Origin: Sedimentisphaerales bacterium
GTDB taxonomy: Bacteria > Planctomycetota > Phycisphaerae > Sedimentisphaerales > SM23-30
Assembly: GCA_963666285.1 (NCBI GenBank)
Contig: OY762711.1
Length of the DNA stretch: 64,000 nt
Strand: one strand, 5' to 3'
Made by a program: the position numbers and the translations under genes. Shown here one piece after another: positions 44,481 to 64,000 of this stretch; positions within the stretch are counted from its first letter, which is position 1; each line of letters opens with the position of its first letter. The notes under the pieces are model-generated. The model saw only the letters and a list, made by a program, of their open reading frames with translations, did no database searches and was not told where the DNA came from.

Positions 44481-46220
44481 TCAATAGTTGATACTATCTG
44501 CCTCTAAAGTAATAACAGGATCGACCAAATGCAGAAAATCATTTCCAACTGCCGGAAACTCATAATTTTCCGGCAATGACTCAATACCATCTGTCACGAT
44601 AAATGTCAGAAACCGGTCCCGGCCTGACAAATCTATATCAATATTAATAGTCCCGGTATCAACCTTAAGTGATTTAACCTGATATCGAACCTCTCCGTCA
44701 ACCAAGACCCAAAAATCAACACATGGTATCTGTTCAACATTATTTTTTGCTTCCGTAATTCCGCCATAAGCCTTAAAGCGGCCAAGCTTCATGCCGTGAA
44801 CAGAATTACGAATTGCTTCAAGATCGAAAGTTATTCCTCCATTGCTGTGAAGCACCATGATATTATTATCATTATACTCGACACCATTTTGAACAAAATC
44901 AGGAATAGTCTCGTGCCAATTGCCAATATCACCACGGTAAGCTACCGTTTCATGTGTATATATGCCACTTGTCTTCGGGCATAAAAAACGATAACCATCA
45001 GATGATATTTTCACATTACCACCTTCCTTATCAGGTACAAACACTCCATCTATATATCTCGAAAATGGTACAGAATGATACTCAGAATCCGAAGCTCTGC
45101 CATCCTGTTTAACTTTTGTGATATATGAACCTGTCTTATAATCAATGCCGCCAAACTCTTTAACATTACCAAAACCATCTCCACCGCTAATATAATCTGT
45201 AAGTTTCAAACTTTCACCTCTCCAGACTAAATTAGATCTTGAATCTATCCTTCTCACAAATTTTTGTGAATCGTAAGCAAGTTCACCTATTTCACCTTCT
45301 ACACCTGTTACTTTTCTTGCTGATCCTTCTTCCAAAGTTACAGCACTTAGCGATTCTTTGCTACCGGAACCTAACGCAACTTTCCCCTTAAGGACATACA
45401 GTTCGGAAACTTTGTTTGAATATGATTCAACACCAAACTCAGTGCCAAGGTCAACAATTGTAGAATTAGGCGTTTTAACCGTAAAACCTATCGCAGCTTT
45501 TGGAACATTCGCATAAATCCTGCCATGCTTCATCTCCAGCCTGCAATCATTTTTCACTATAAACTCTGTTGGTGCTTCAATTGTTACAAAGGTATTATTG
45601 TCAAATAATATTTCAGCAAATCCTTTGTTTAACCGGAACACATGGTTTTCACCAACAACGAACCGATATCCTCTTTCTAAATCTATATTTTCCCATTGTG
45701 CATCTAAAGTTGAAACAAGTGTAGCGGTTTCATACCCCGGCTTTGGTGAAAAGATTATCAAACTGAACACAATAACCACAGCCGCTGCCAAAGCATAGTA
45801 ATATAATTTAGACTGCTTTTTGATTTCCTGTTTTGATTGAGTTTCTTTGATCGTATCATTGGGTTCTGGCTGAAATTGCTTTGGCAATTCAACTTCTGGA
45901 ACAGTGCTTTCTCCCCTTGCCAGTTTCAACAAAACATTTATATCAAGTTCTTCATTGTTTTCATCTTTTTGGAAATTTGCAATATCAGCATGATCAAATT
46001 TAATATCATTTTCCTGGCTGCCAAACAAAATACCTGAATTATTATAGTCACTAAAAGCAGTGTATATAGTAAGCATTTTTAGAAAACACTCTCTAGCTTT
46101 TGAATTACATTTAAGCTGAGCTTCTAAATATTCAAACTGGTCATCAGAAACCTTGCCATCAAAAGTCAGCACGATCAACTGTACCATCTCATCTAAATAA
46201 TTGTTATGTTTATCTGTCAT
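44481..46220 (-). CDS. FecR-family anti-sigma factor with C-terminal NPCBM/NEW2 domain
   Basis: Single TM helix; GFTVKTP...VDLGTEFGV...VLKGKV (FecR); LHSNGGITFDL, VLVDG, RFLTFIVTDG. Confidence 0.88.
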   Translation of the reverse strand: MTDKHNNYLDEMVQLIVLTFDGKVSDDQFEYLEAQLKCNSKARECFLKMLTIYTAFSDYNNSGILFGSQENDIKFDHADIANFQKDENNEELDINVLLKLARGESTVPEVELPKQFQPEPNDTIKETQSKQEIKKQSKLYYYALAAAVVIVFSLIIFSPKPGYETATLVSTLDAQWENIDLERGYRFVVGENHVFRLNKGFAEILFDNNTFVTIEAPTEFIVKNDCRLEMKHGRIYANVPKAAIGFTVKTPNSTIVDLGTEFGVESYSNKVSELYVLKGKVALGSGSKESLSAVTLEEGSARKVTGVEGEIGELAYDSQKFVRRIDSRSNLVWRGESLKLTDYISGGDGFGNVKEFGGIDYKTGSYITKVKQDGRASDSEYHSVPFSRYIDGVFVPDKEGGNVKISSDGYRFLCPKTSGIYTHETVAYRGDIGNWHETIPDFVQNGVEYNDNNIMVLHSNGGITFDLEAIRNSVHGMKLGRFKAYGGITEAKNNVEQIPCVDFWVLVDGEVRYQVKSLKVDTGTINIDIDLSGRDRFLTFIVTDGIESLPENYEFPAVGNDFLHLVDPVITLEADSINY

Positions 46221-46229
46221 TACTCACCA

Positions 46230-46769
46230 TTAAATTTCCATCCCCATACATTGAAGCAAAGTTGAATGTATTTTTGCAATATTCCTGTAAAAGGTTCTCA
46301 GAGACATACCGAATCTTGTTGCAATCTTTTGAGCTGTTAAACTATCTTCATACTTAAGCTTAAGTAAATTTGAATCTTTTAAAGGAAGCTTTTTAATACA
46401 TTCTCTTAAAGTCTCAAGTTGAGAATCATATTGCTGCATTTGGCTACCGGCTTGATCATTTATTGCTTCTAATGTCTCATGTGAAAATTGAATAGGATTA
46501 TTCTTGTGTTTTCTTCTAAAACCGGAAATAACATATTTGGTAACAGTAAAAGCCCATGCTAAAAACTCGGTGCCGGGTTCATAAGTATCAAATTTCTGCC
46601 AGAGAATGGAAATAGCCTCCTGCATAATATCGTCAGCATCAGATTTATTAGGCCATCTACTCAAGATATATGCATAAATTCGCCCCTGAACAGGAGTTAA
46701 TAAATAAAGAAAATATTCAGGCCCTTTTTTGTCCTGAAACTTATCTTTATCTTGGCTGTTATCAAACAA
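46230..46769 (-). CDS. ECF sigma-70 factor (Planctomycete/Verrucomicrobia type)
   Basis: RIYAYI...DADDIMQE...LWQKFD.Y.PGT.FLAWA; C-terminal HTH (L..CIKKLP...LL.LKY). Confidence 0.92.
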   Translation of the reverse strand: MFDNSQDKDKFQDKKGPEYFLYLLTPVQGRIYAYILSRWPNKSDADDIMQEAISILWQKFDTYEPGTEFLAWAFTVTKYVISGFRRKHKNNPIQFSHETLEAINDQAGSQMQQYDSQLETLRECIKKLPLKDSNLLKLKYEDSLTAQKIATRFGMSLRTFYRNIAKIHSTLLQCMGMEI

Positions 46770-47113: not shown

Positions 47114-50100
47114 TTATTTTATACTTAGCCACCCTTGAGCAAATTCAGTAAGATCATTAAAATCTATACCACCGCTGCGGTCGATATCGGCCCCATCACA
47201 CCTGAACCAGCTGGCTGAACAATCCGAATTAAGCCAGTTCGCAGCAAGATAACTCATATCTGCAATATCTACCTTGCAATCGCCATCAAAATCGACATTT
47301 GATCCACTGGTTGTAAATGACCAGACAGGTCCGGAGATATAATCACCACAATCATTACTGACATCTACTTTCCAGTAATATTGCATATCAGTCTCAAGAA
47401 CTCCAGGATCAAATATCTTAAACCTGTACCCTTCTGCGGCCAGGTTTACAGGTGGATTAACTGTATCCAGGTAGATATCATAGCTCAAATCAGAAATACC
47501 AAGCCTGACAGCATTGGCAATCAGCCTGGCATAATTATCATCATATGAATAAAAATCCCAACCCAGCAATATTGCCATACCGTGTCCCATATAGTTGGAA
47601 ACAGCAACAGGTTTGCCCTGATAACTAATCAGTATCTCATTTTCTGTTGAATCATAAGCTACAGTACCAATACTACTTACAAAGGATTGATCCATATTTT
47701 CTGTCAATAAATTATCCGAAGCCTTCTCAATTTCCATGCCACCAATAATTGCAGGCTGGTCGGCCAGAACCTGCATCATCCCAGCTGAGTTCATTAACTC
47801 ATAAGCACCCCAGAAATAATCACATGCGATTACTATTCCACCTCGCTCGACAAATTCATTAAGTATTTCTGACCAGCTTTCGCCAAGTGCAGAAGCTACA
47901 GAAACAATTGTATTTTGCTGCTCAGGTATAATGAATACCTGATTGGATTCTAATAACTGCCCAAGTAAGATCGGATCTTCCTCATCTGTCAGTGTTACGG
48001 AAAAATCTGTAAAATACTGTGCAACAGCATTTAATGTATTTTCAACCTCACCTCCAACAGTATTGTTGGCATACTTAACAAACATAAGTACGTTAACAGT
48101 AGCGTCCGGAATATCGATAAATGCCTTTGTTGGTAATGCACTAACAGTTGGTATGCCCTTCTCAGATTCGCAGGTAAGTTTTTTATCCAGAATACTTTGC
48201 TGCAACTCAACAGAACGAGTTTCACTATATGCCAGCGAAGATTTCGTTTCAACAACCGGAACATCCCACATCAGCGGCAGGTTAACCGGGCGGCACACGC
48301 TCTGATCTTCCGGCATAACCGGCTCAGGCTCCAGAATTTCTTCACAACTATGGATAAGAATATCAACTGTTGCTGTATTGGAGACCGTCATCATGTCAGA
48401 GGTGGAATTATAGCAATACCACTGGAATTGATCTGAAGATAGAGCATCTCGATCAGCAGAATACAGTAAGATATTGTCATTACCCAAACCATAAGGAACT
48501 GTATCTATCAAAGTCTGTCCAACATATAAATCACCATATTCAGGTAAAGATGAAATAATGTATTCATCTGCAAATTCAGCTTCCAGCAACACTGCCGCAG
48601 ACTGGCCGGCCCACACATCAATTGTGCTGTCAAGTGCGATCGGATTATTCGCTATACAAGATGAACTGCTGCTAAAGTCAGTTTCAACAAAGGATGATGG
48701 TATGCCCTGACCTTCAGAGAAACCGACACCAACCAACTCAGAATTGCCATCAACATCCAGCCAGTGAATTTTTATTACACCGTTAAAAAACAGTTCCGTT
48801 TGAAAAGTGTAATCGTTATTATCCCAGTCCCATACTTGATTAAAAGTAATAACAACCCTGTCATCCAACTGGTTGTAATAAACTTCGCCACCAAAATCCG
48901 GGTTAAGGTCAGCGTAGAACATGGAAATCCTGGGAACTGCGAAATGTTCAGAATAAGAAAAGGCCGGAACAGTACTACCACTTCCAAAAGTAATGTTACC
49001 ATTAGCACTTACATAAAAATATGAATAACCAGTTCCATAGTGTAATACCTGTTTACTATCACTAAGAACAATTTCCTGATAAATATCATCATTATTACCA
49101 GAGTAATTTAATATCCTGGTTCCCGCATTGGGGTCATTTGGCAGATCAGTCAGAGAATCAATACAAACGGAATAGCCTCCTTCAGAATCATCCGGAGTAA
49201 AAGTAGCACTCAAACCTGAAAGATCTGATTCACCTGCTAAAAACGATTCGGTAATATAATCTACGGGAGGGAGAACCTCTATTGTAATAGAAGCAATATT
49301 AGAGCTACTATCACCATCGTTAGCATACCAATTGAAATAATCAATACCTTCAACGTAATCATCTATTTGATAAGTTAAGATGTTATTAAAACCTAACGAA
49401 TATGGTACAGTAGTAATTTCTACTTCACCATCGTAGAGTTTACCAATAACCGGCAATTCTGTGATAACATATTCCAGCTCCTGCGGAGTACCATCATCAT
49501 AAGCACTTAGAATAATACTTTGTGACATTACCTGGTTAACAGTTAAATAGATATCAAGAGCAATAGGAGCAATTGGACCTACCTGCTGACATTGCTGATA
49601 TCTATTCAAGTTACTTTCCAGAAATACTTCAGGAATTACACCATTGGACAGTCCAACCAGCCCATCACCAGCTTCTATATTTATCCAGGTTATCTTTATA
49701 ACCCCACTAAAAAACAGCAGCAGCTGAAAACTGTTTACATTGCCAGTCTGGCTACCACTGCTATTTAATTCACCGATATCTTCATATGTTACTACCAGCT
49801 TTTCATCATCAATTAAATAGCTGATTCTAGTAACACCTGATATTGGACAGAGATCATCAAAAAATGCCGAAATTCTTGGCATATTAAAATGTGAGGAAAC
49901 AGATTCAGTAAACTCGGTATCAGCAACAAATGTCAGGTAACCATTTGATCCTACATAAATTGCATTATACAGCTGCCCAAAAAACGGGAAATTATGATCA
50001 TTCAACAATATCTCACGGGCATCATCGTCATTAAGAGATATCTCAGTAGAACCGGATGGATCAACTTCAAAATCAACTGTATCCCGGACACAGGCCAGAT

Positions 50101-51793
50101 AAAAACTGTTAGCATTACCGGGGGTAAATACAATAGTTTTACCGTTAAGGTCAAAGCTGTTATCTCCAATGCCGGTAAAGGTTTCAGTTAAATAATCAGT
50201 ATATCCAAGGGCCATCAGAATTGTGATATGTCTTACAAGATTGTTACTATCTATAATTTCAATATTTGCAGTATATATACCATCACTCATCGAAGCTGTT
50301 GTTTCAGGATTTATACTGACAGTAATATCCTCAGAATCCCCGGCAACCAAAGTTCCTGATACCGGACTGACAGAAAGCCATGAAACCGGGACAGAGGCCT
50401 GCCAGGAAAGCTCCTCTGTTGTTTCGTTCGCAAAGACATATTCAACATTAGATTGCGAAAATGGGCCACCGGCCTGACCAAAGAAGATATAATCATCTAC
50501 CGGGCTAATATCCAGCCCAACCGGAGACTCCTGAATGATTTTTTCACAGAATGTGTACAGATCATAATAATTCCAGTACGAGCCATATCTTAAAGACGAA
50601 CTCCGGCAGCCGCTTATCCAGCTGTCAGATGCAATGGTTTCATAATAAGCAAGAAAATCTTCCCAACTTGTAGCATCTAAAAACTGCATATTGCTAGAGT
50701 TATAATCAGTTTCCGGACCACCGGAAGGGAAATTAACAGATAAACCATGCGCTCCCTGATAGGAAGCACCATGCATTTCTGCAATAGTAATATTACTCAA
50801 AGCCGTTTCGACATTTGAAGCATCCAGCAGGCATAATTCCGGATTGCTCATACCATTAGCAATAAGACTGTCAGAAAAATCATTTACCGCGGTTAATAGC
50901 GTATCAACGCCTGAAAGATCAAAAGCAGCCAAAGTTTCACCAGTTAAATATGACTGATAATAACGGTTTACAATCACAGAACCTAATTCAGGTGTGGTGA
51001 TAAAGGGATTAGTTTGTAAATCTTCGAAGATAGTGTCATAGGGCCAACCATCAGCGGGTATTTCAGCTGGAGAACCGATAAAGTAATCAACCACATCTTT
51101 GTATTCAGAAATCACTTCAACCATAGCCATGAGACACGCATCCATGCCTAAGACATCGATATTTATAAGTTCTTCTGTTTTAAGCTCTTCCAGAACTACC
51201 CTGATCTCTGCCAGAGATAATTCATCCTGACTGGTAGAATCTAGACAAATAGCTTTGGCAGGGTCTTCCTCAATCTTGGGTAAACCCAGCCCTCGCGATA
51301 AACTGTAGGCTGCAGCCTGACTTACATAGTAATCGGCCCAGCCGTTACCATGGTTCCATAGAACAAGAGCGGTTCTGGTTGACGGGAAACTGGCAGCACC
51401 CCAGGAGATAAAATCTTTCAGATTTTGCGGGTCGCCCATATTTATTTCGCCGAGATCCTCACCCCATGAGCTGCCGGGGGTATCGCCGAATTGCACATAC
51501 CCCCTGCGGGTAGTAGTCCAATTGTCATATGAGTAGCTGTAACTACCTATCCTATCAAGCATTACCACAATATTTATATTGGTATCACTGCCAATAGAAG
51601 ACATTTCGATAAAATCCAAGAGTGCATATTCTTCAAGGTCATTGTCGCCATCGACATAGATAAGGAAAGTCCATTCTTTCAAAGGTGCCGGGTTGGTTGG
51701 TGAATATTGCGCATATATATGCCCAGATATGCAGAGCAACAATATCATCACCCAGAAAGTATTGTTAATAAGAGATTTACAGGCTGTTCTCAT
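47114..51793 (-). CDS. Large secreted clostripain-family (C11) cysteine peptidase with BACON/Ig-like, two NIDO-like, GATase-like and dockerin-like domains
   Basis: WTFLIY.DGDNDLE, EINMGDP, LWNHGNGW (catalytic His), MDACLMA (catalytic Cys); two FPFFG/YV.SNG..TF...PRIS.F..DL units; C-terminal dockerin-like pair. Confidence 0.85.
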   Translation of the reverse strand: MRTACKSLINNTFWVMILLLCISGHIYAQYSPTNPAPLKEWTFLIYVDGDNDLEEYALLDFIEMSSIGSDTNINIVVMLDRIGSYSYSYDNWTTTRRGYVQFGDTPGSSWGEDLGEINMGDPQNLKDFISWGAASFPSTRTALVLWNHGNGWADYYVSQAAAYSLSRGLGLPKIEEDPAKAICLDSTSQDELSLAEIRVVLEELKTEELINIDVLGMDACLMAMVEVISEYKDVVDYFIGSPAEIPADGWPYDTIFEDLQTNPFITTPELGSVIVNRYYQSYLTGETLAAFDLSGVDTLLTAVNDFSDSLIANGMSNPELCLLDASNVETALSNITIAEMHGASYQGAHGLSVNFPSGGPETDYNSSNMQFLDATSWEDFLAYYETIASDSWISGCRSSSLRYGSYWNYYDLYTFCEKIIQESPVGLDISPVDDYIFFGQAGGPFSQSNVEYVFANETTEELSWQASVPVSWLSVSPVSGTLVAGDSEDITVSINPETTASMSDGIYTANIEIIDSNNLVRHITILMALGYTDYLTETFTGIGDNSFDLNGKTIVFTPGNANSFYLACVRDTVDFEVDPSGSTEISLNDDDAREILLNDHNFPFFGQLYNAIYVGSNGYLTFVADTEFTESVSSHFNMPRISAFFDDLCPISGVTRISYLIDDEKLVVTYEDIGELNSSGSQTGNVNSFQLLLFFSGVIKITWINIEAGDGLVGLSNGVIPEVFLESNLNRYQQCQQVGPIAPIALDIYLTVNQVMSQSIILSAYDDGTPQELEYVITELPVIGKLYDGEVEITTVPYSLGFNNILTYQIDDYVEGIDYFNWYANDGDSSSNIASITIEVLPPVDYITESFLAGESDLSGLSATFTPDDSEGGYSVCIDSLTDLPNDPNAGTRILNYSGNNDDIYQEIVLSDSKQVLHYGTGYSYFYVSANGNITFGSGSTVPAFSYSEHFAVPRISMFYADLNPDFGGEVYYNQLDDRVVITFNQVWDWDNNDYTFQTELFFNGVIKIHWLDVDGNSELVGVGFSEGQGIPSSFVETDFSSSSSCIANNPIALDSTIDVWAGQSAAVLLEAEFADEYIISSLPEYGDLYVGQTLIDTVPYGLGNDNILLYSADRDALSSDQFQWYCYNSTSDMMTVSNTATVDILIHSCEEILEPEPVMPEDQSVCRPVNLPLMWDVPVVETKSSLAYSETRSVELQQSILDKKLTCESEKGIPTVSALPTKAFIDIPDATVNVLMFVKYANNTVGGEVENTLNAVAQYFTDFSVTLTDEEDPILLGQLLESNQVFIIPEQQNTIVSVASALGESWSEILNEFVERGGIVIACDYFWGAYELMNSAGMMQVLADQPAIIGGMEIEKASDNLLTENMDQSFVSSIGTVAYDSTENEILISYQGKPVAVSNYMGHGMAILLGWDFYSYDDNYARLIANAVRLGISDLSYDIYLDTVNPPVNLAAEGYRFKIFDPGVLETDMQYYWKVDVSNDCGDYISGPVWSFTTSGSNVDFDGDCKVDIADMSYLAANWLNSDCSASWFRCDGADIDRSGGIDFNDLTEFAQGWLSIK

Positions 51794-52327: not shown

Positions 52328-52723
52328 ATGACAAAACCAACTGAAGAAAAACAAGGCAAATATGAGCTAACCGAGGCGGAATGGTCTATTATGCGGCATA
52401 TCTGGGATAACGGTGCCAGTACTGCGGGTATGGTGCAGGAGGCATTGGAAAAGAGTAAAGGCTGGGCGTACAGTACAGTAAAGACAACGATGGACCGTAT
52501 GGTAAAGAAAAATTTACTATTTACCGAGCGTATCCGCAACCTGCAATTGTTTAAGGCGTGTATCAGCCGGGAGCAGGCACAAAAAGGAGAGTTTCAAAAG
52601 ATGCTCTCACGAGCGTTTAACGGTGCTTTAACGCCAATGATGCAGTTTCTTCTGGAGAATGAAGAGATATCGAAGAACGAACTGGATGAGTTAAGGCAGA
52701 TGATAGAAGATAAGAAAAGTTAA
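52328..52723 (+). CDS. BlaI/MecI/CopY family transcriptional repressor
   Basis: LTEAEWSIMRHIW, WAYSTVKTTMDRMVKK, F.G...P.M.FL, EL.ELRQMI. Confidence 0.93.
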   Translation: MTKPTEEKQGKYELTEAEWSIMRHIWDNGASTAGMVQEALEKSKGWAYSTVKTTMDRMVKKNLLFTERIRNLQLFKACISREQAQKGEFQKMLSRAFNGALTPMMQFLLENEEISKNELDELRQMIEDKKS

Positions 52724-52901: not shown

Positions 52902-55900
52902 ATGGACATTACAACCATGATCAATGAATTGGGCCAATGGTTCTGTAAAGAAAACTTTGCTATGCTGGTTCAGTCGAGCGTGTTAATAGCAGTACTAATG
53001 CTGCTGGATCTAGTTATCAAGAAACGAGTTAGAGCGGTTATTCGATATTGCATCTGGATGCTGGTACTGGTGAAGCTGGTACTGCCGACGAGCATATCTA
53101 TGCCTACCGGTTTAGGGTACTGGATAAGCGACCAATGGTCGATGGAAGCCAGAACAGTCGAACAGCCGAACAGTCGAGAAGAAATTTCAAAAGAAGGGAC
53201 ACGGGAGGATAGCGAAGCAATTGCGGCGGCGGACAGTATGGTCACAGATGGTGTACGGGTGGTACGCAACGGCGCGAAGCGTAACGGCGAAGAGTTAACT
53301 GAAACGGCGGATAGCGGCGGTATAGCGGCTAACAGCGGAAAGGTATCGAATGGTAACGGCGATGCAGCGGCGGAAGACCAAATAAGTGGAGTGACAGGCT
53401 TACGGGATATTAATATTTTGCAAAATGACGTAAGTGCAGAAAAAAAATCAGCGGGCCTACCAGATGGGATGAAGTCTGAAGTAAGAAGTCTGAAGTCTGA
53501 AAATGAAGAAATTAAGAATTCAGAATTTAAAAATCAGGAAGAAGAAGAAAAGGGATATGGGATAAGGGATAAGGGATTAGGGAATGTGCTCGCTAACGCT
53601 CGGTTAATTAATAATGAAGAAGCAACCACGAAAAAGGGGACGGAGAATCTGAAGTCTGAAGTAGGAAGTCTGAAGTCTGAAAATGAAGAAAAACAGTTAG
53701 CGGCCGGGAATCAAATAACCTGGCAGGGCTGGATATTTATGGGCTGGTCGGTTGGTGTGCTGGTGCTGGTGAGTGTGCTGGTGCAGCGGTTCTGGTTTGT
53801 TAAGAGCCTGGTAGCGCAGAGTGAGCCGGTGAAGGCCGAGCGTATAAGGCAATTGATGGCTGAATGCCGGGAGCTGGTCAGAGTAAGCAGTAAAGTAGAG
53901 CTAAGGCTGACACGTAATATGATGAGTCCGGCGGCGTGCGGATTGTGGAAGCCTGTGATACTTATGCCGGAAGAGCTGCTGGAGAAATTGAGTAAGGACC
54001 AGCTGAAAGCGGTACTGCTGCATGAGCTGTCGCATATCAAGCGAGGCGACCTGTGGGTGAACCTGGCACAGACACTTTTGCAGATAGTGTACTTCTTTAA
54101 CCCCCTGCTCTGGATCGCAAATGCGATAATTCGCAATGTGCGAGAGAAAGCGGTAGATGAGTTGGTGATCGCGAAGCTAGAAGGTGATGCCGGGATGTAC
54201 AGCAGTACACTGGTTGATATAGCCGAGATCGCATTTTCCCGACCGCATTTCAGTTTGAGGCTGGTCGGGGTAGTCGAGTCCAAGAAGGCGTTGAAAGACC
54301 GTATAAAGCATATCTTATCGAGGAAGTTTCCCAAATCAGCCAGATTGGGTGCGGCGGGTATTGTGAGTATAATTGTACTGGCGGCGGTGCTGCTGCCGAT
54401 GGCGAGCGGGCAAGGTGCACAGGATAAATATATCTTTGAATATGGAGATGGCCATAAAATCGAGCTGGTCGGAATATGCAGCTGGCCGCCAAACGGCAAC
54501 AAATGGCATAGTCCGGATGGTATGCCGCTGGATATAAAGATCCAGACCTCTGACAGCAGCGGTATAGAATCGGATGAGCCCGGCTATCAGCTGGCGTTCA
54601 GGTCTGACAAGGGAGCAGCGTTCAAGTTAGAGTATATCAAAGGCTGCAGAGCGAAAAGTGAGCTTGGCGTATTTGACAAAAATGAAATAACAGCTTTTAA
54701 GGCTCATATCAATGGCAATTTAAATAAAACCAATATTAGAATCGCGGTACCGGATGGCAACTGGGAAACGTCATGTTCGAGCAGATCGATAACAGGTACG
54801 AGCGGCCATAAAGTAGATGGTAAGCCGTTAATATTCGGCGGGATGCAGTCCGGCGATAATATGATTATTACCTGCAGTGATAATGTAGGCTATAAAAAAG
54901 CGAGCAGGATAGTTGTAATTGACAAAAGCGGAAAGATAGTTGACGGAAAATCAATCGCGGATACCGGTTTTAATAATGTTCGACAGCGGACAATAGAATA
55001 TAAGAACATTGGACCTGCCGATATTGATAAGATCGAATTTATGACATGTTCGTATAAGACACATACGTTTAAGAATGTGGTTTTGAAATCGATACCCAAG
55101 AATCTTCAGTTCAGAATCGAGGGAACTGTAACTGATGCAGATACGGGCGATCCGATTGCCGGTGCAAAGGTAGGCGATGTTTCAGGCTATAACAGCGGCA
55201 GGTTTTCTACTACGACAGACGAAAACGGTAAATACGAATACCTGACATATTATGAAGAGCATAATATTGTTGCGAAAGCAGCCGGTTATGAAACTAAGCA
55301 GGAGATACTGCTGACGAAGCTGATCGGGAAAGAAGATAAAAAGACTATTGATTTTAATCTGAAGGATGAAAGAAAACAGGGATCAGGGATCGGGGATAAG
55401 GGATTAGGGAAAGTGCTCGCTAACGCTCGGTTAATTAATAATGAAGAAGCAACCACGAAAAAGGGGACGGAGAATCTGAAGTCTGAAGTAGGAAGTCTGA
55501 AGTCTGAAAGTGAAGAAATTAAGAATTCAGAATTAAAAATTAAGGAAGAAGAAGAAGAAGAAGAAGAAGAAAAGGGATATGGGATAAGGGATAAGGGATT
55601 AGGGAATGTGCTCGCTGACGCTCGGTTAATTAATAATGAAGAAGCAACCACGAAAAAGGGAATGGACAATCTGAAGTCTGAAGTAGGAAGTCTGAAGTCT
55701 GAAAAAGAATATATTAAGAAAGAAGAAAATAACCCAAAAGAAAGTGAAGAGCTAAGAACTAAGTATACTTTGTCAGAATTATTAAAAAATATACAAAATG
55801 CTGATAATGTTAGAAGTCAGCTACTATCGAATTCACAAGGTAAAGCATTGATCAATATCACATTAAGTAAAATGGCTACCAACGGGAAAGGTAAGCTACA

Positions 55901-58900
55901 GGATGAGTCTGTCAAGAAGTTTGATACAGACGACTATAGCTGCGTTATTGACAAAAACGGTAATTTCACCATAGACTGGTACCAGAGCGTTGTCAAAAGA
56001 AGGTTTGATTTACATTCTGTCGATCAACTAAACAATACAACACAGGCTAAGCCACTATGGTCAAATGTTGACGCACGCACTTTTATTGACCCTAATAAAT
56101 GGATAGTTTATGATGCGATAAAAGATGAATGTTCTGCAAAAAACGCAAAAGCACGAGCTAAGCATGCAACAAATCCGCTATCGATAATATTTGATTTTGA
56201 TATTGAACGACTTTACAGCGTAAACCTTCATTCTCAAATCCGAAACATTGTCCTCTTGTATGCAAATAATGGAACTAAGCCTAAAATAGCTGCTGAGACC
56301 GTTAACGGTATACCCTGTATTAAGATTTCAATCTTTAAAGAAGCTGAAAATGATAATGGCAACATAATGAATAAGCTAATTGAGTTCTGGGTTTCACCGG
56401 AGATGGGACATTCGCTGATTAAATATAGATTTTCTATGGGCAAATGGTCCCAAGGAATAGACCTCCCCCTTTGGCAAAGTTATGATGCAAGCTATATAGA
56501 GTCCAAAGAAAATCATGGAGTGTGGCTGCTTAATAAGCTGGAAATGTCACATAAAGATATTACGATGGGCAATATTGAAACTCTTCGGGTAGAGTTTGTT
56601 GAGACAGAGATTGATACTGCTATTTCTGGTGAAGTATTTACTACCAAGGGTTTGGGCGTAACAGATAAGACTAAGTTTGTTGATAAATTGATGGAAGAGA
56701 AAGAAAGTCAGAGATATGGCGAAGAAATTAAGAAAGAAGAATTAAAAATTAAGAAAGAAGAAGAAGAAAAGGGATATGGGAAGGAAAACATAAAGGATGA
56801 AGTATCAAGTATCAAGTATAAAAAGAATTCAAACACGAAAGACGGAAAAGATGCGGAAATGGGGACGGACCCCATTAATTCATTGGATATTAAACAAGAA
56901 TGGAAAACAATTGCAGAATCATATAAAGTGAATTCCAATATTCCGGTGCAAGTTGCTTCAGTGGCAACGGATTACGGACAGGTAGTCTTTGGAAATGCGT
57001 ACAGTAAAGATGATGGAGCCTGGATATCAACAACTGACGATATTGACAGAAATATTTGTGAGGTACGCATTGTCGCAATCGATATCGATGGTAATATATT
57101 ACTTCAAAATGGCGGAGGAAGCAGCACTGTAAACAAAACAAATACACTGCAATGTCGATTTGACACTGAATTGAGCAAAGTCAGTCTTTTTGAAATTCAG
57201 ATCAGGAATAATGAAACCACAAAAGATGCAGAAGCTGAAATTAATATAGAAACGATTAAGGGATGGGTAATAGATTATTATAAAGATTATGACCTGGAGC
57301 ATCCGAGTGATCGAATATTGAAAAGAAGATTCCTCGAATGGAATGAACCGGCAGTTGACAGCAGCAACCGACATCTGATAAATTGCACGGTTGAAGAGAC
57401 AAGCCGGAAAAGCGGAGATGATATTATAGTTATCAAGGGCGAGGACTTTACCTTTAACCCGGACGGCAGTTGTGCATCGAAGAAGAAAACAAACACAAAT
57501 TCACTATTTGATTATATCGCGAGCGATATTGTCGGTAGATACATAAGAAACAATATAGATGATGGCTATAGCTGGAAAAGTTATGTTGAGAAAGGAAATT
57601 TAGGAACAGATGAAAATGGTAACTATACATATAGGATTAAATATGAGTTGAGATATAATGATAGCAGCTATTCTTATACATATTTCACGAAAACATTTAC
57701 GGTGAATCCGGATTACGAGATAATTGCGATTGAAGAACTGCCGAAGGAGCTGACCAGTTATGATAAACGCAGGATTGCGAACATGGTGAGTGAATACAGA
57801 GAGAAGATGAGGAAAAGGGATATTGCCGGGATACTTGAGATGCTGGTGATTGAGGATGATAAACATCTGGAGATGGTTAAGCAATATCTTGAAGAAACTT
57901 TATACGGGAAATGGTCAGATTGGAATTTTTATTCAGAAGAGAATAATAAGTTCGTTGACGTTTATGAAGATGGTAATAATAACTTTGAAGCCTGGACACT
58001 GACTAAATCTTTGGATGATAAATGGACTATAGGAGTGATACCGGTAAGGTATAAGAATGGGGAATTTAAGCTTGACAACTTTAACAAGGAAACAATAGAA
58101 AAGTGTAAAATAATTAAGACAACAGATATAGACAGTATGGGCAAGATATTGCAGCAGAAGAATGCCGAGGGATGGGTTCATGCCGAAGGAAAAGAACTGA
58201 AGAAGCTTTATCTGGATAAGATAACTCATGAACAGAGAAGCCTGGCGACATTAAGCGTTGCTGATAAGTACAAATTAGAGATGATGAGATTTTGTACAAG
58301 AGAAGAAATTGAGAAACGGTTGAACGAACTTGAGAGTATGACACCGGAAGAGCTGAAGGAGAAAATGATATCGGAAGCCCTACTACGACCAGCTCAGAAC
58401 AAAGCGGCAAGAGGAGAGAAGTCTGAAGTAAGAAGTCTGAAGGCTGAAAGTGAAGAAATTAAGAATTCAGAATTAAAAATTAAGGAAGAAGAAGAAAAGG
58501 GATATGGGGTGGAAAACATAAAGGATGAAGTATCAAGTATCAAGTATAAAAAGAATTCAAACACGAAAGACGGAAAAGATGCGGAAATGGGGACGGACCC
58601 CTTTAATTCAACCTATCTGCAAAATTCCGGCAGTATATGGGATCTGCACAAGACAGACAGGATGCAGGATATCTTTATGCTTGACCTGGAAACGGGGCTG
58701 AAAGCGAAGCTTAAAGATATCGCTGATATCGAACAGCTGAAAAGGACACAAGAATCATTCAACGCAGGTGATATCTATTATTGCTATGATCAACAGCCAT
58801 GGCTGGGGATAGTTCAAGAAGCACATTTCGCGAATGGAAATATAGAATTTGACCCGGCTTTGAAAAGGACAGTAATCAGCGGGTTAAACAATATTATTGT

Positions 58901-61900
58901 TATAACTAAAGATAACAGGACGTTCGATATAAACTTCAGCTATTCAGATGAGAATGGCTGTATGATAAAATACCGAGAGATAGCGGCAGGTGAACCGATG
59001 CCGAAGATTAAGTTCAAGGCGCAGGTTAGCACAGAAATTCGGTTTGCCGCTATTGACAATAAGGCCGTGCCAGGTTATGACAATTCAGACTGCAGCATAG
59101 TCAGTAAAGATGAATATGAAGAGATTATCGAAAAAACTAAAAAGGATAGTAAAGGCAGGTTAATTACAGCACCTAACGTAACATTATTTGACGGGGAAAA
59201 AACGGACATTTCGTTATCGACTGAAATATTTCGCCAACTAGGATATGATAATATGGATATCCGGTTTACTCCTTATGTAATGGATAATAATATAGTATCT
59301 CTTGCGGTCAAATTCAATCGGGAAATAGACAGCGGCAGACGGGCCGAAATACAAAAATATGTCAGGTTTGAAGCTGGTCAATATGGCGTACTGCCTCTAA
59401 AGAATATTATCGGGATTGATTACCTGATGATTGTCAATTGTCAGATTATTGAGCCTGACGATGGCAGCAACGGTAATCATGGCAGCTGGGAAAAAGATAA
59501 AAAGGAGAAAAGTGATCCCCTATTCGATAGAGAGTACCTGGGCGAGTGGAAGATGCCAGAGCTAGATATTAAAGAGGGAAAGAAAATTAAAAGCTTAAGG
59601 CTGAACATAAAAGATAACGGTACTATGACGATCAGATATATCGATATGAATGGAGATACAATATTACTTGATGCAGATTATGATGTTCAGGATGGCATGG
59701 TCATAGCCGGGAACGGGGATAATATCTACGTAAGATGCTATTTCAAAGATGATATATTTTCAGCTGAGATGCCTGAATTTGATATGACAGTACTGTTGGA
59801 ACAAGTGATGCCGGAAGCTAATTTAAAGACTGACGGCGAAGAAATTAAGAATTCAGAATTAAAAATTGAGGAAAATATAAAGGATGAAGTATCAAGTATA
59901 AAGTATAAAAAGAATTCAAATACGAAAGATGGAAAAGATGCGGAAATGGGGACGGACCCCATTAATTCACTGGATATTAAACAAGGATGGAAAACAATTG
60001 CAGAATCATATAAAGTGAATTCCAATATTCCGGTGCAAGTTGCTTCAGTGGCAACGGATTACGGACAGGTAGTCTTTGGAAATGCGTACAGTAAAGATGA
60101 TGGAGCCTGGATATCAACAACTGACGATATTGACAGAAATATTTTTGAGGTACGCATTGTCGCAATCGATATCGATGGCAATATATTACTTCAAAATGGC
60201 GGAGGAAGCAGCACTGTAAACAAAACAAATACACTGCAATGTCGATTTGACACTGAATTGAGCAAAGTCAGTCTTTTTGAAATTCAGATCAGGAATAACG
60301 TAGAAATGGGGACGGACCCCATTAATTCAACGTTCAAAACAGTTGTACTTAAAAATTCAATCCAGGCGATCAATTTAAGTAATAATCAGAAAACATATGA
60401 TTTTTATGTACTGGATATGGCAAGCGGAAATGTGAAAGAGTACGAAAATGTACAAGATTTCAATCATTTGACAAATATCCTGAATAGCGTCGGCAAAGGA
60501 GATATGGCGTTTGTATTTACTAAAGACAGATGTATGCCGGTAATCAACTGGGTTCGGAATGCTCGGCCTGTTGAAAAAGCCGATGAAAGACAGAGCCACT
60601 ACTTCTACAGTGCGAAGTGGTATCCGGACGATAATATAATTACCAATGAAGGCAAACGATATTATGTATATTTCAAGGATTGCGATGAAAACGGGTGTGA
60701 GATATATTACAGGGAGATCATGCCGGGAGAATCGCTGCCGAAAAATGTCGAGAGAGAATATGTCAATGAAAATAACGAGATAGTATCAATAGAGATGGAA
60801 CTGTTCAGTCTGAATGGAACTGAATACAGTATAGACACAGAAAGGATAATTAAAAACGGCGACGAGCTGGATGAGACCCAGATAAGTTTTCTGCGGAAGA
60901 TCTCAGAAAGTGGAAAAGTGAATTTCTGGGAAAAGCTGCCAAAGATAAAAGCGTTTAAGACAGAAAAGGTAGATATGAGCTCACTAGGGGCAATATTGCC
61001 AGCCGACAAATTCCAAATAGACAAGCTGACCGTCATCCCAAATGATATAAACGGCGGAAGTTTATGCCTGGATATTGATCTTGCCGGTTCGTTTCATGCC
61101 GTCGACTATACAGGCGATAACAAAACAGATGCGATAATGAGTTCGTTCACACGCAAGGTTACGAATATTATGCCTGAAAACAAGGCGGCATTGCTGGAGC
61201 TGTGCGGAGTAAATGGCATTCATTATTTCATGCTGGTTAAAATGCAAAATGCAGGCAGTGATCTGAAGGATGAAAATGAAGAAATTAAGAATTCAGAATT
61301 AAAAATTGAGGAAGAAGAAGAAGAAGAAAAGGGATATGGGATAAGGGATAAGGGATTAGGGAATGTGCTCGCTGACGCTCGGTTAATTAATAATGAAGAA
61401 GCAACCACGAAAAAGGGGACGGACCCCATTAATTCCTTTACCCCCTCCTGGATTGGACTGCCAGAAGGGTGGGACAGAGATAAGGCCTGGAAAGAGATAA
61501 CCAGCTACCTGGAAAATAATATAAAAAGAGATTTGCCGGAAAGTAATATAAGTTATTTCAATGATGACATAAAGCATGGACCGGTTGAAATATCGTACCA
61601 TACACAAAAATATCAAGTTGAAAGTCCGGTATCTAAGGCAAGAATTGATACAGAGAAACAAACAGAAACAGGCCCTCAGCCAGACGGACTGATAATCAGG
61701 ATATATCTAACTGAAAATATTGAACAGATGGTAAGGCCGCAAACTCTGGATAAAACTTTCTGGAAAGTTGATTTCCTGAAAATATATCTGCCTGAACTTA
61801 AATTGTTCCTGATGGCCAACATATCATACGGCAATCAAACCGACCAGACACTTCTCAGTAAATATAGAAATTTAAACGGAATAATGGCTAACATTATCGA

Positions 61901-64000
61901 AAGTACGCAAACCACAAAAATCACAGAAGTGGATAACCAAAGGTACGATACAGTTGATAAAAAATATATGGATAAGATGGCGGGTGAGGTTTTGTTCTGC
62001 GGTGAGTATAAGCATATAAGCCGGAGACGTGAGATAGAGACGCCCAGCACACTGCTTGTAACTCGAGGGGCAGACGGAGAGATAAACGCTTTGGCGTATA
62101 TGCCGTGGATGGGCAGCTATGACATGGCGGTTGGTGATAAAGAAGGTAAGCTGTCGGGCTATTTTACGTGGCGGGCAGAGTCGGAAGGTAAGCCCGGGTT
62201 CGATACGGAGCTGGAGCTGGGTGATGGCAAGGCGGTATTGAACCGGCACGGGATACGTGAAGACAAGGTAAATGTGGAGTTGAGTGTGGCGGAAGGAGCG
62301 AGGTTTAGCCCAAATAGCAGGCCGGACAGCTATTGTGCAGATAATATATTTATGCGCGGGCTGGATATAGCAGTTGAAACGAGTAAGGAATTTGAAGTTT
62401 ACGACTGGGATAACAGCGGCGAGGCGATGGCGAGCTATACGATAGAGGTGTATAATGCCGGGAAAGAAGAGGTTGTGGTGCCGGCGGGCACGTTTGAGGC
62501 GAACCATTATGTGCTGACGCAGACCAGTACCGGAAATACGTGGTATAAGAAACAAAACGGACATATTACCGATTATTGGGTGATGGATGACGGGATAATT
62601 GTGCGGGTGCTTCGACACAGGGAGCCGTATGAAATACAGTTAATGAAAAATGAAAGAATACAGGGATCAGGTTTCAGAGGTCAGGGATCAGGGAAGGTGC
62701 TCGCTGACGCTCGAGCTAATAATACTGTATCTAAAGGGGAATATGAGATATGCGGTACTGTAACAACAGAAATGTCAGAAGGTCGCTGGGAAGAGTTTTT
62801 TGCCAGAATGGATGCCGCCAAGACAGAAAAAGAGCTGAATGATATTGTAACGTCAGAGAGGCAGCCAGGAAAAGAACCAGCGGCAAATGTTGAGGTAAAA
62901 CTAATCGGCCGGTATGGGAATAAACCGTTTGAGCGAATAACATCAACCGATAATAATGGCAATTACTGGTTCAAAGACCTGCCGATCGGCAGTTACAGAA
63001 TATCATGCCAAGATAACATTGTTTATAATCGAACCGGCAGTATAGTGACAATGGTCGGTGAAGGAGATAAACCGATAGAGTTTGTTTTGTCCGGTAAGAA
63101 GAGAGCCGAGATGGATATCGAACTTCGTGATAATAACCTGCTGACTGTAACAGGGAGAGTACTTGATCAAAAAGGCAGGCCAATCACAAATGCTGTTGTA
63201 ACCGGGACAAGTACCCCACTTGAAAATGGCGGGATAGGCGAAACAAGCGAACAAACGAGGATTTTCAGTCCGCAGATAATAACCGGCAAAACTGATGCCG
63301 AGGGCAGGTATCAGCTGGCAGGGTTTGAAGCAGCCCATTATATAAACGTATTTCGCAGTTTGATCAATACGAATAAGGATGCACGCGGACCATATAAATT
63401 CTTTGCTGATATTACGGTACGGGCGGATGGGTATGTGCCGGCTGAGAGGAAAGCGTACAGAGTTCCGCTGGCAGGTGAAGAACAGCTATATCGTGCCAGG
63501 CGGCTGCTGAAAGCATATGAGAAATTGGATACTGATGCCAAAGTGAAGGAAAACCCTGAGCCGGTATGGCCGTTTGCGAAATGTGAAGGTTCAAAGCTGG
63601 TTGGTGTAGATATAGTAATGAAGTCTGAAAGAATAAGTGAAGAACTAAGAACTAAGAGTGAAGAGTTCAGGAATCCCCCTACGGCGGAAGCTAATTTAAA
63701 GACTGACGGCGAAGAAATTAAGAATTCAGAATTAAAAATTAAGAAAGAAGAAAATGCAAATACAGCAGTTGGAAATGATGAGCTAGTCGTTGAAGATGCG
63801 GAAAAAGAGACGGTCAGCATAAATTCCAGTTTAATTTTTTCAGAATCTGCATATGACAAGATGAAAAAAGAGCTGGTTCAGGAGACCGCGGAAAATACAA
63901 AAGAGTCTTCTATCGATCAATTTGTCGGTATCTGGGAAAATCCGGGATTTATCGGTAACGATGAAGGAAGGCCAAAGTACACATACTTACTGATAATATA
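52902..64000 (+). CDS. Giant BlaR1/MecR1-like M56 peptidase with a multi-cassette C-terminal region (>3699 aa, runs off the window; absent from the ORF track)
   Basis: SD AAGAAAGG then ATG 52902: MDITTMINELGQWFC...RVRAVIRYCIWMLVLVKLVLP; SPAACGLWKPVILMP; HELSHIKRGD at 54021; YFFNPLLW; REKAVDE; LKDRIKHIL; final TM helix; later carboxypeptidase-regulatory-like domains. Frame checked by hand at about 10 points to the window end; the track lists no + ORF here, consistent with no stop. Confidence 0.88.
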   Translation, partial: MDITTMINELGQWFCKENFAMLVQSSVLIAVLMLLDLVIKKRVRAVIRYCIWMLVLVKLVLPTSISMPTGLGYWISDQWSMEARTVEQPNSREEISKEGTREDSEAIAAADSMVTDGVRVVRNGAKRNGEELTETADSGGIAANSGKVSNGNGDAAAEDQISGVTGLRDINILQNDVSAEKKSAGLPDGMKSEVRSLKSENEEIKNSEFKNQEEEEKGYGIRDKGLGNVLANARLINNEEATTKKGTENLKSEVGSLKSENEEKQLAAGNQITWQGWIFMGWSVGVLVLVSVLVQRFWFVKSLVAQSEPVKAERIRQLMAECRELVRVSSKVELRLTRNMMSPAACGLWKPVILMPEELLEKLSKDQLKAVLLHELSHIKRGDLWVNLAQTLLQIVYFFNPLLWIANAIIRNVREKAVDELVIAKLEGDAGMYSSTLVDIAEIAFSRPHFSLRLVGVVESKKALKDRIKHILSRKFPKSARLGAAGIVSIIVLAAVLLPMASGQGAQDKYIFEYGDGHKIELVGICSWPPNGNKWHSPDGMPLDIKIQTSDSSGIESDEPGYQLAFRSDKGAAFKLEYIKGCRAKSELGVFDKNEITAFKAHINGNLNKTNIRIAVPDGNWETSCSSRSITGTSGHKVDGKPLIFGGMQSGDNMIITCSDNVGYKKASRIVVIDKSGKIVDGKSIADTGFNNVRQRTIEYKNIGPADIDKIEFMTCSYKTHTFKNVVLKSIPKNLQFRIEGTVTDADTGDPIAGAKVGDVSGYNSGRFSTTTDENGKYEYLTYYEEHNIVAKAAGYETKQEILLTKLIGKEDKKTIDFNLKDERKQGSGIGDKGLGKVLANARLINNEEATTKKGTENLKSEVGSLKSESEEIKNSELKIKEEEEEEEEEKGYGIRDKGLGNVLADARLINNEEATTKKGMDNLKSEVGSLKSEKEYIKKEENNPKESEELRTKYTLSELLKNIQNADNVRSQLLSNSQGKALINITLSKMATNGKGKLQDESVKKFDTDDYSCVIDKNGNFTIDWYQSVVKRRFDLHSVDQLNNTTQAKPLWSNVDARTFIDPNKWIVYDAIKDECSAKNAKARAKHATNPLSIIFDFDIERLYSVNLHSQIRNIVLLYANNGTKPKIAAETVNGIPCIKISIFKEAENDNGNIMNKLIEFWVSPEMGHSLIKYRFSMGKWSQGIDLPLWQSYDASYIESKENHGVWLLNKLEMSHKDITMGNIETLRVEFVETEIDTAISGEVFTTKGLGVTDKTKFVDKLMEEKESQRYGEEIKKEELKIKKEEEEKGYGKENIKDEVSSIKYKKNSNTKDGKDAEMGTDPINSLDIKQEWKTIAESYKVNSNIPVQVASVATDYGQVVFGNAYSKDDGAWISTTDDIDRNICEVRIVAIDIDGNILLQNGGGSSTVNKTNTLQCRFDTELSKVSLFEIQIRNNETTKDAEAEINIETIKGWVIDYYKDYDLEHPSDRILKRRFLEWNEPAVDSSNRHLINCTVEETSRKSGDDIIVIKGEDFTFNPDGSCASKKKTNTNSLFDYIASDIVGRYIRNNIDDGYSWKSYVEKGNLGTDENGNYTYRIKYELRYNDSSYSYTYFTKTFTVNPDYEIIAIEELPKELTSYDKRRIANMVSEYREKMRKRDIAGILEMLVIEDDKHLEMVKQYLEETLYGKWSDWNFYSEENNKFVDVYEDGNNNFEAWTLTKSLDDKWTIGVIPVRYKNGEFKLDNFNKETIEKCKIIKTTDIDSMGKILQQKNAEGWVHAEGKELKKLYLDKITHEQRSLATLSVADKYKLEMMRFCTREEIEKRLNELESMTPEELKEKMISEALLRPAQNKAARGEKSEVRSLKAESEEIKNSELKIKEEEEKGYGVENIKDEVSSIKYKKNSNTKDGKDAEMGTDPFNSTYLQNSGSIWDLHKTDRMQDIFMLDLETGLKAKLKDIADIEQLKRTQESFNAGDIYYCYDQQPWLGIVQEAHFANGNIEFDPALKRTVISGLNNIIVITKDNRTFDINFSYSDENGCMIKYREIAAGEPMPKIKFKAQVSTEIRFAAIDNKAVPGYDNSDCSIVSKDEYEEIIEKTKKDSKGRLITAPNVTLFDGEKTDISLSTEIFRQLGYDNMDIRFTPYVMDNNIVSLAVKFNREIDSGRRAEIQKYVRFEAGQYGVLPLKNIIGIDYLMIVNCQIIEPDDGSNGNHGSWEKDKKEKSDPLFDREYLGEWKMPELDIKEGKKIKSLRLNIKDNGTMTIRYIDMNGDTILLDADYDVQDGMVIAGNGDNIYVRCYFKDDIFSAEMPEFDMTVLLEQVMPEANLKTDGEEIKNSELKIEENIKDEVSSIKYKKNSNTKDGKDAEMGTDPINSLDIKQGWKTIAESYKVNSNIPVQVASVATDYGQVVFGNAYSKDDGAWISTTDDIDRNIFEVRIVAIDIDGNILLQNGGGSSTVNKTNTLQCRFDTELSKVSLFEIQIRNNVEMGTDPINSTFKTVVLKNSIQAINLSNNQKTYDFYVLDMASGNVKEYENVQDFNHLTNILNSVGKGDMAFVFTKDRCMPVINWVRNARPVEKADERQSHYFYSAKWYPDDNIITNEGKRYYVYFKDCDENGCEIYYREIMPGESLPKNVEREYVNENNEIVSIEMELFSLNGTEYSIDTERIIKNGDELDETQISFLRKISESGKVNFWEKLPKIKAFKTEKVDMSSLGAILPADKFQIDKLTVIPNDINGGSLCLDIDLAGSFHAVDYTGDNKTDAIMSSFTRKVTNIMPENKAALLELCGVNGIHYFMLVKMQNAGSDLKDENEEIKNSELKIEEEEEEEKGYGIRDKGLGNVLADARLINNEEATTKKGTDPINSFTPSWIGLPEGWDRDKAWKEITSYLENNIKRDLPESNISYFNDDIKHGPVEISYHTQKYQVESPVSKARIDTEKQTETGPQPDGLIIRIYLTENIEQMVRPQTLDKTFWKVDFLKIYLPELKLFLMANISYGNQTDQTLLSKYRNLNGIMANIIESTQTTKITEVDNQRYDTVDKKYMDKMAGEVLFCGEYKHISRRREIETPSTLLVTRGADGEINALAYMPWMGSYDMAVGDKEGKLSGYFTWRAESEGKPGFDTELELGDGKAVLNRHGIREDKVNVELSVAEGARFSPNSRPDSYCADNIFMRGLDIAVETSKEFEVYDWDNSGEAMASYTIEVYNAGKEEVVVPAGTFEANHYVLTQTSTGNTWYKKQNGHITDYWVMDDGIIVRVLRHREPYEIQLMKNERIQGSGFRGQGSGKVLADARANNTVSKGEYEICGTVTTEMSEGRWEEFFARMDAAKTEKELNDIVTSERQPGKEPAANVEVKLIGRYGNKPFERITSTDNNGNYWFKDLPIGSYRISCQDNIVYNRTGSIVTMVGEGDKPIEFVLSGKKRAEMDIELRDNNLLTVTGRVLDQKGRPITNAVVTGTSTPLENGGIGETSEQTRIFSPQIITGKTDAEGRYQLAGFEAAHYINVFRSLINTNKDARGPYKFFADITVRADGYVPAERKAYRVPLAGEEQLYRARRLLKAYEKLDTDAKVKENPEPVWPFAKCEGSKLVGVDIVMKSERISEELRTKSEEFRNPPTAEANLKTDGEEIKNSELKIKKEENANTAVGNDELVVEDAEKETVSINSSLIFSESAYDKMKKELVQETAENTKESSIDQFVGIWENPGFIGNDEGRPKYTYLLII
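53471..63755 (+). repeat. Dispersed in-frame linker repeats inside the giant ORF (8 blocks plus one isolated palindrome)
   Basis: Blocks at about 53471-53690, 55356-55763, 56718-56882, 58418-58610, 59812-59969, 61261-61436, 62647-62725 and 63620-63755, plus a lone palindrome at 60303-60329. Shared parts: AAGTCTG/AAGAATT/GGGATAA heptamers, (GAA)n, GTGCTCGCTRACGCTCG and GGGGACGGACCCC. Confidence 0.92.
56782..60298 (+). repeat. 430-bp near-identical direct repeat (56782-57211 and 59869-60298)
   Basis: Offset 3087 bp; about 8 substitutions counted by eye; the antisense ORFs 56890..57147 and 59977..60234 are near-identical. Confidence 0.92.

Follow-up and report, generated by a model that had tools for sequence, protein, structure and literature searches.

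Di Nocera et al. (2013; PMC3733652) described TIRtrons, a class that pairs TIRYT transposases with families of terminal inverted repeats (TIRs) of consensus GGGGWSAS. Single-stranded DNA bearing repetitive extragenic palindromes (REPs) is cleaved and recombined in vitro by E. coli TnpA-REP (PMC3333891), and characterised Y1 enzymes select their sites via guide motifs beside the palindrome (PMC8266576). The host benefit of RAYT-type transposases and their repeats is a standing question, and the TIRYT class is little studied. Here we describe a 64,000-nucleotide (nt) stretch of DNA from a Sedimentisphaerales bacterium (contig OY762711.1 of assembly GCA_963666285.1; the whole stretch is called the window), in which a short palindrome recurs in frame within a giant M56/BlaR1-like sensor gene. 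Judged by its sequence, the palindrome is the TIR of TIRYT-type Y1 (HUH) transposase elements. We propose, with a probability of about one half, that the hairpin served in this gene as the point where a TIRYT, not found in the source genome today, linked the outer end of the hairpin to domain-coding DNA. This would place a known kind of repeat in an apparently undescribed role, through an enzyme action that we infer; neither a cargo-joining role for TIRs nor repeat-linked shuffling of M56 domains was found in the literature searched, which lay outside subscription journals.

The hairpins of the giant gene and their kinship with TIRYT elements

The giant open reading frame (ORF) starts at window position 52902, occupies 52902..64000 and extends 2,743 nt beyond the window end (G000:C1:4532902-4546743, where G000 is the source genome, 97% complete, and C1 its contig), encoding 4,613 residues; this and all other features given by window position lie on the + strand unless marked otherwise. 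Residues 249-471 match PF05569 (M56) above its cut-off (E 1e-46), the ORF scores 143 bits against NF000326, under the 400 cut-off of that model, and a BlaI/CopY-type repressor gene lies 5' of it (52328..52723; PF03965, E 1e-30, above cut-off). The M56 domain is followed by about 19 modules, with boundaries drawn by eye and internal paralogy judged from alignments and inspection, whose GC content at third codon positions spans 0.31-0.64. The only Pfam labels among these accessory modules are CarboxypepD-like, weak DUF3108-like and HEAT parts; a penicillin-binding domain was not reported by Pfam in residues 1-3699 and the later segments scanned. At the DNA level, no copies of the modules were found elsewhere in G000 except the linker repeats and one match to an M56 paralogue, and a search with residues 1290-1900 returned nothing except the giant gene itself.

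Five exact copies of GGGGACGGACCCC were found in the window, with cores at 56861, 58589, 59948, 60308 and 61415 (hairpins 1 to 5: 56858..56881, 58586..58609, 59945..59968, 60305..60328 and 61412..61435), all on the + strand and all translating as (M/K)GTDP(I/F)NS within the one ORF. With up to two mismatches allowed, the window holds six matches to GGGGACGGACCCC, compared with 0.30 expected and a maximum of three in 100 shuffles. A perfect 7-bp stem, AATGGGG/CCCCATT, is present at 56861 (where the outer end reads TTAATTC), 59948 and 60308, while the arms are mismatched at 58589 (AAT/TTT) and 61415 (AAA/ATT). An earlier note on this DNA had reported all five exact copies, the three stems free of mismatches, the GTDP frame that the copies share and, in addition, two half copies (GGGGACGGA, at 53636 and 55463), and all of these are present as claimed; further decayed copies at 55658 and 63806 had been overlooked. 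Since the two half copies are mutually identical for 50 nt leftward and 46 nt rightward, they represent a single duplicated event, and they look like the decayed hairpin of a paralogous M56 gene (see below). Covariation over 31 hairpin copies gave a score of 0.134, with three of 500 shuffles equally high, a result that is weak since the copies were chosen by pattern.

The identity of the palindrome emerged from a metagenome locus, L118, where a Y1 gene is bracketed by exact GGGGACGGACCCC hairpins in inverted orientation and the element ends read AATT. The L118 protein carries NHWHLL and YIEANP (by inspection, the HUH motif and the catalytic tyrosine) and is 76% identical to a congener's TIRYT; its 76% homologue matches NF047646 with an E of 8e-16, below cut-off. 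TIRYT-like Y1 genes were present in 24 of the 41 genomes searched, including all three congeners, many of them with related inverted repeats alongside. Against the TIR motif GGGG[AT][CG]A[CG], the window copies read GGGGACGG and match at seven of eight positions, while the sister copies GGGGACAG and GGGGTCAG satisfy it. The L118-type element fits the TIRtron class of Di Nocera et al. (PMC3733652), and in the scheme of Quentin et al. (10.1101/279083) it probably falls in TnpA-Y1 subclass 2.1. Each copy in the giant gene is thus one TIR with its outer end toward the next domain. The link to RAYTs drawn previously is supported in that the palindrome belongs to RAYT-related Y1 repeats, of the TIR/TIRYT class, as the L118 pair indicates. 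It does not look like a GTAG- or CGTC-tagged REP, a GTAG tag being found 5' of only the 60308 copy (1/5), and the alignment of 31 copies shows no column conserved in this way. Two loci are of interest in themselves: L118:738-1500 is a complete cognate TIRtron whose left end interrupts a thioredoxin/DsbA-like frame (by inspection), and at L126:6576-9650 (G001) a tandem duplication spans a lipoprotein-like gene and a TIRtron, and the second of the two TIRYT copies is broken.

Where other DNA meets the hairpin

Counting from the first G of the GGGGACGGACCCC core as 0, the sequence common to copies with different downstream domains stops at +20 or +21, at or one base past TTAATTC, and the same outer end is adjoined by four different domains (A, B, B-prime and E0), whose first base is +21 or +22. 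The earlier statement that cargo starts right after TTAATTC is thus borne out, and aligning the flanks, as had been recommended, does reveal a fixed breakpoint ahead of these four domains. On the left-hand side, exact sharing among the copies varies from 0 to 78 nt. Module A (56882..57209), behind hairpin 1, corresponds to the latter half of a domain that many M56 genes of relatives contain; module B (58610..59012, end by eye), behind hairpin 2, is a diverged paralogue of B-prime (60329..60752, end by eye), and its family also occurs in relatives' M56 genes. A-prime (59969..60296), a 98-99% copy of A, has a hairpin on either side, starting at +21 of hairpin 3 and ending near -11, about 11 nt ahead of hairpin 4, which has no long upstream linker. 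E0 (61436..61928, from homologue alignment), behind hairpin 5, is a widespread accessory domain, most of whose best homologues start aligning at most a few residues from where the hairpin stops. We also observed that the sequence after module A, at 57210-57242, resembles a linker that lacks its hairpin (GCTGAAATTAAT); it may mark either an empty site or a deletion that kept the frame.

The same hairpin was found in four of 401 Pseudomonas genomes searched, at the junctions of Rhs-/CDI-type (contact-dependent inhibition) toxin-immunity arrays identified by inspection. Within each Pseudomonas locus the copies are co-directional (35 of 35), a figure that shows consistency only, as the majority of copies set the orientation of each locus. 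What distinguishes two loci of 99% identity is a segment that runs from the outer end of one hairpin to just before the next. To locate breakpoints across 21 loci, we counted only alignment ends whose partner had no hairpin, and left L151, which has no oriented hairpin, out of this count and of a first one; the first count (42/229) was discarded because a shared hairpin lengthens alignments. Twelve of 55 alignment starts fell at +18 to +29 (0.48 expected; maximum 4 in 3,000 draws) and six of 95 alignment ends at -7 to -17 (1.07 expected; maximum 7 in 3,000 draws), compared with one of 150 informative ends inside the core (1.8 expected), in loci that overlap and are related and so give breakpoints that are not independent. 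These counts suggest that new DNA meets the hairpin at its edges, chiefly at the outer end. As separate observations, the hairpin punctuates orphan Rhs/CDI-type arrays, with gene fragments right after it, at L113, L120, L121, L123, L141-L145, L147, L152 and L161-L171, and at L120 a stretch of 236 nt copied from the gene next to it lies just ahead of a hairpin.

The loop itself, where the earlier note had placed the join, does not appear to be the joining site, given the single informative end in the core and the fact that the half copies are one ambiguous event. In its full version, that proposal has a RAYT resident in this genome cutting within the loop and placing cassettes at the cut, as an active system. 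The half copies do diverge at the loop, two copies have mismatched arms as expected from a core crossover, and G000 has five Y1_Tnp matches, three of them alike and IS200-type, one with a stop and one RAYT-like. On the other hand, the half copies resemble the decayed copy of the paralogue, none of the five Y1_Tnp matches lies near a hairpin copy, the RAYT-like gene is not matched by either of two TIRYT queries, and Y1 enzymes choose their sites by motifs beside the palindrome (PMC8266576). A RAYT-like gene is there, as anticipated, with no hairpin copy near it. Runs X1 and X3, compared like X5 and X6 as contigs, showed no clear alternative arrangement among their listed pieces. We regard a resident loop-cutting RAYT as quite improbable. 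Mismatched arms occur in two of the five copies in the giant gene and in none of 36 other listed copies (Fisher p 0.012, for copies that are not independent), and because of this crossovers inside the core probably do occur, between existing hairpins. Elsewhere, evenly spaced direct repeats resembling a CRISPR array lie beside a broken IS200-type gene (L004:459-773).

Evidence of exchange between organisms came from runs X5 and X6, which are one sample; most short joints in the run comparison stem from repeats and were excluded. An 8,554-nt X5/X6 contig carries window positions 59934..61278, flanked by copies of the linker at 63716-63804; over the 1,345 nt there are 51 differences, or 96% identity. 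Only 79-86% identity is seen for BlaI, for the M56 part and for two further domains, which stand in swapped order. This disparity suggests that the block was recently transferred between organisms. Its left junction lies 14 nt 5' of hairpin 3, and the contig bridges hairpin 4 with the same flanks. The part of the block holding A-prime and B-prime gave no protein match among longer proteins (weak evidence) and no match in metagenome contigs, and in 200 other genomes of the order only matches of 30-34 nt, in four genomes.

The bridging contig also bears on three other readings: that selection preserves the motif for the peptide it encodes (GTDPINS), that it works as a signal in RNA, and that the repeats are an assembly artefact. 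The five copies do share a frame, and a short T-run in the sense direction after the stem might help to avoid termination. The hairpin DNA is, however, read in a different frame in two other G000 genes and is intergenic elsewhere, the other organism's contig carries hairpin 4 with its flanks, and the unique parts listed for run X1 match the window with 0 differences. These explanations are largely refuted already, and we consider them highly improbable.

Linkers, relatives and the possibility of a passive hairpin

If a TIRYT joined the cargo, it would have been present once in the lineage as the source of joining, nicking single-stranded DNA at the outer end of the hairpin and rejoining it to another strand, with selection keeping only in-frame joins at domain edges. 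Existing modules could later have been reassorted by recombination in the 60-190 nt shared linkers or in the hairpin core, with no transposase needed, and the common frame would reflect descent of the copies from one or two founder linkers, together with the requirement that the ORF stay open.

The linkers, however, also support a different account, in which the TIR was a passive passenger that, much as intragenic REPs do, inserted once or twice in a tolerant linker between domains and spread with its composite linker by duplication and homologous recombination, so that shuffling ran through the long shared linkers and the hairpin had no special role. Composite linkers make up about 12% of the giant gene and consist of heptamer arrays and other short repeats dispersed genome-wide, with the hairpin as the final module of its linker, immediately before the next domain. 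They lie 5' of hairpin 1 (56715..56857, heptamer arrays and an NTKDGKDAEM module), hairpin 2 (58415..58585), hairpin 3 (59812..59944) and hairpin 5 (61262..61411); at 55370..55765 (two tandem units, with the half hairpin 55463 and the decayed copy 55658); at 62645..62730, without a hairpin and ahead of two CarboxypepD-like domains; and at 63620..63826, ending in a decayed hairpin module (core 63806). One more, at 53470..53695 (heptamer arrays and the half hairpin 53636), sits within the M56 region, in its variable N-terminal loop, and, as expected of a passenger, is followed by no new domain. With G000 genes called by our own script, 13 of 151 period-7 arrays on C1 fell within called genes, 11 of those 13 in the giant gene, indicating that its linkers gather several types of intergenic repeat. 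The second M56 gene, L088 (G000:C1:6078597-6082385), 1.5 Mb off, has the same linker modules in the same order, with a decayed hairpin at the end. Intergenic DNA at G000:C1:512580-513000 consists of heptamer arrays, 9-mer-like repeats, REP-like palindromes and a TIR hairpin, a non-coding counterpart of the gene's linkers. The four-helix-bundle family PF05635 has 10 matches in the genome, some with heptamer-like flanks, and at G000:C1:45310-46200 tandem PF05635 genes are separated by identical repeat-bearing spacers; PF13366, tried with the idea that linker modules flank GxxExxY genes, gave no match.

Copies outside the giant gene tell a similar story. The genome search recommended earlier did turn up copies beyond the gene, three exact and about four near, both intergenic and within three other G000 genes in two frames. 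The hairpin is present in two of three congeners, often as a perfect 27-nt palindrome and intergenic; three of its four GTDB matches are Sedimentisphaerales, and viral contigs gave none. RNA data sets containing it were likewise absent from the listing, which does not bear on its expression. In a radical SAM gene the same site reads GGGGACGGACCCC in one species (L024:4946-4990, G002) and GGTGTCAGACACC in the other (L025, G001), in frame, the hairpin being followed there by sequence resembling the TIR of another TIRYT group (GGTGACTGTCCCC). Two of three orthologues of a membrane protein (L090) have hairpin-like remnants. Among side observations on related TIRs, at L026:6380-6470 (G001) and G000:C1:1575839 a GGTGTC-type TIR arm leads straight into the same unrelated sequence, the L026 arm preceding a transposase-like ORF, so that TIR ends may be the target of an insertion sequence or may have been captured by one; and in G002 and G001 (L023, L027) TIR hairpins, every one of them oriented with transcription, lie at successive gene junctions of an ABC operon that by inspection is MlaE/MlaF-like.

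Several results weigh against a joining role. The motif occurs in 16 of 351 Phycisphaerae genomes, with many copies in long open frames, and hairpins sit in tolerant loops of ordinary genes without any change of cargo: at G000:C1:1090738 (L090:2721-2765) the hairpin lies in a loop of the membrane protein with no length change relative to the three orthologues. In the giant gene, an intact hairpin stands at the start of only about five of the 19 by-eye modules. Of 17 M56 genes found in relatives, 15 were fetched (one running off its contig); they share many of the giant gene's domains, arranged in other orders, yet hairpin and linker DNA is present in none of the 15. Because all 15 shuffle without it, domain shuffling is family-wide and does not require the hairpin. 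On its right side the X5/X6 block is joined through an overlap of 5 nt that lies in a heptamer linker, without a hairpin, so that hairpins are not at every junction, and the X5/X6 contigs have similar depth but are physically unlinked. As to the enzyme, two TIRYT queries and family scans of G000 found no TIRYT of this subfamily; the fragmented draft Pseudomonas genome with 21-23 hairpin copies gave two weak TIRYT matches (E 0.002 and 0.009), and Pseudomonas G201 no close TIRYT; an assay of any TIRYT was not met in the literature found. The mutual dependence of the Pseudomonas breakpoints counts on this side as well.

A passive hairpin leaves unexplained, on the other hand, why four domains adjoin the same nucleotide (+20/+21), why A-prime is hairpin-bounded on both sides and why Pseudomonas breakpoints cluster against hairpin-free partners, and we see it as a real possibility without favouring it. 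Of the earlier proposal that the hairpin is a cut-and-join site for cassettes, the fixed junctions after TTAATT(C) stand, while most module starts lack a hairpin and relatives shuffle without one. L118 supplies a cognate enzyme-hairpin pair, and the predicted joining position is the outer TTAATT end, not the loop, which makes the proposed role of TIRYT directly testable. Should TIRYT prove to join cargo, this would help to explain how, with no integrase involved, modules are added to giant modular sensor proteins and to orphan toxin-immunity arrays; should it not, the gene still shows that intergenic mobile repeats became coding linkers and offer shared homology for domain exchange. A broader and rather doubtful extension would be that TIRYT and solo TIRs form a cross-phylum, integron-like system of DNA capture, joining the outer end to arbitrary fragments and building both the Pseudomonas Rhs/CDI arrays and an in-frame library of sensor domains traded between species. 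Further 5' of blaI, the window holds a 1,559-residue clostripain (C11) domain protein with BACON/NIDO-like parts (47114-51793, - strand) and an extracytoplasmic function (ECF) sigma/FecR pair (44481-46769, - strand).

Comparison with known systems

The locus resembles BlaI/BlaR1-MecR1 in that a BlaI-type repressor gene precedes an M56 membrane peptidase domain, and differs in the roughly 4,100 residues of shuffled accessory domains that follow it, among which Pfam reported no penicillin-binding sensor domain. Integron attC arrays and orphan Rhs/CDI arrays have directly oriented hairpin sites between exchangeable modules, as here. Unlike in integrons, the modules here are fused domains of one ORF and the site is a Y1 transposon end; the 24-30 nt hairpin does not by inspection resemble attC, and in the window region, where no integrase search was made, we saw no recombinase next to it.

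Like REPs and bacterial interspersed mosaic elements (BIMEs) with their TnpA-REP (RAYT) in E. coli, Stenotrophomonas and Marinomonas (PMC3333891, PMC8266576), the palindrome is a short hairpin tied to an HUH Y1 enzyme, and the in vitro cleavage and strand exchange by TnpA-REP (PMC3333891) offer a mechanistic precedent. Unlike them, it has no conserved GTAG tag, is present in about a dozen copies and not hundreds, and is mostly coding in G000; unlike GTAG/CGTC REPs with a resident REPtron, it is not accompanied in G000 by any cognate RAYT gene that we could find flanked by the repeat. As with intragenic REPs and the Rickettsia palindromic elements (PMC3733652), palindromic repeats are translated in frame in tolerant parts of proteins; those repeats are insertions into one protein, whereas the repeat in the giant gene is where unrelated domains come together, and a block bounded by it has apparently moved between organisms. 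The closest match is to TIRtrons (PMC3733652), with which the system shares the GGGG-W-C-R-G arm, the self-complementary TIR, the inverted pair round a Y1 gene (L118) and dispersed solo copies. It departs from them in that the cognate gene was not found in G000, that the window copies are one base off the GGGGWSAS consensus, that a cargo-joining role is not mentioned in the available parts of PMC3733652 or 10.1101/279083, and in that the TIRs of the giant gene are direct repeats, placed in frame at the domain joints of a single gene.

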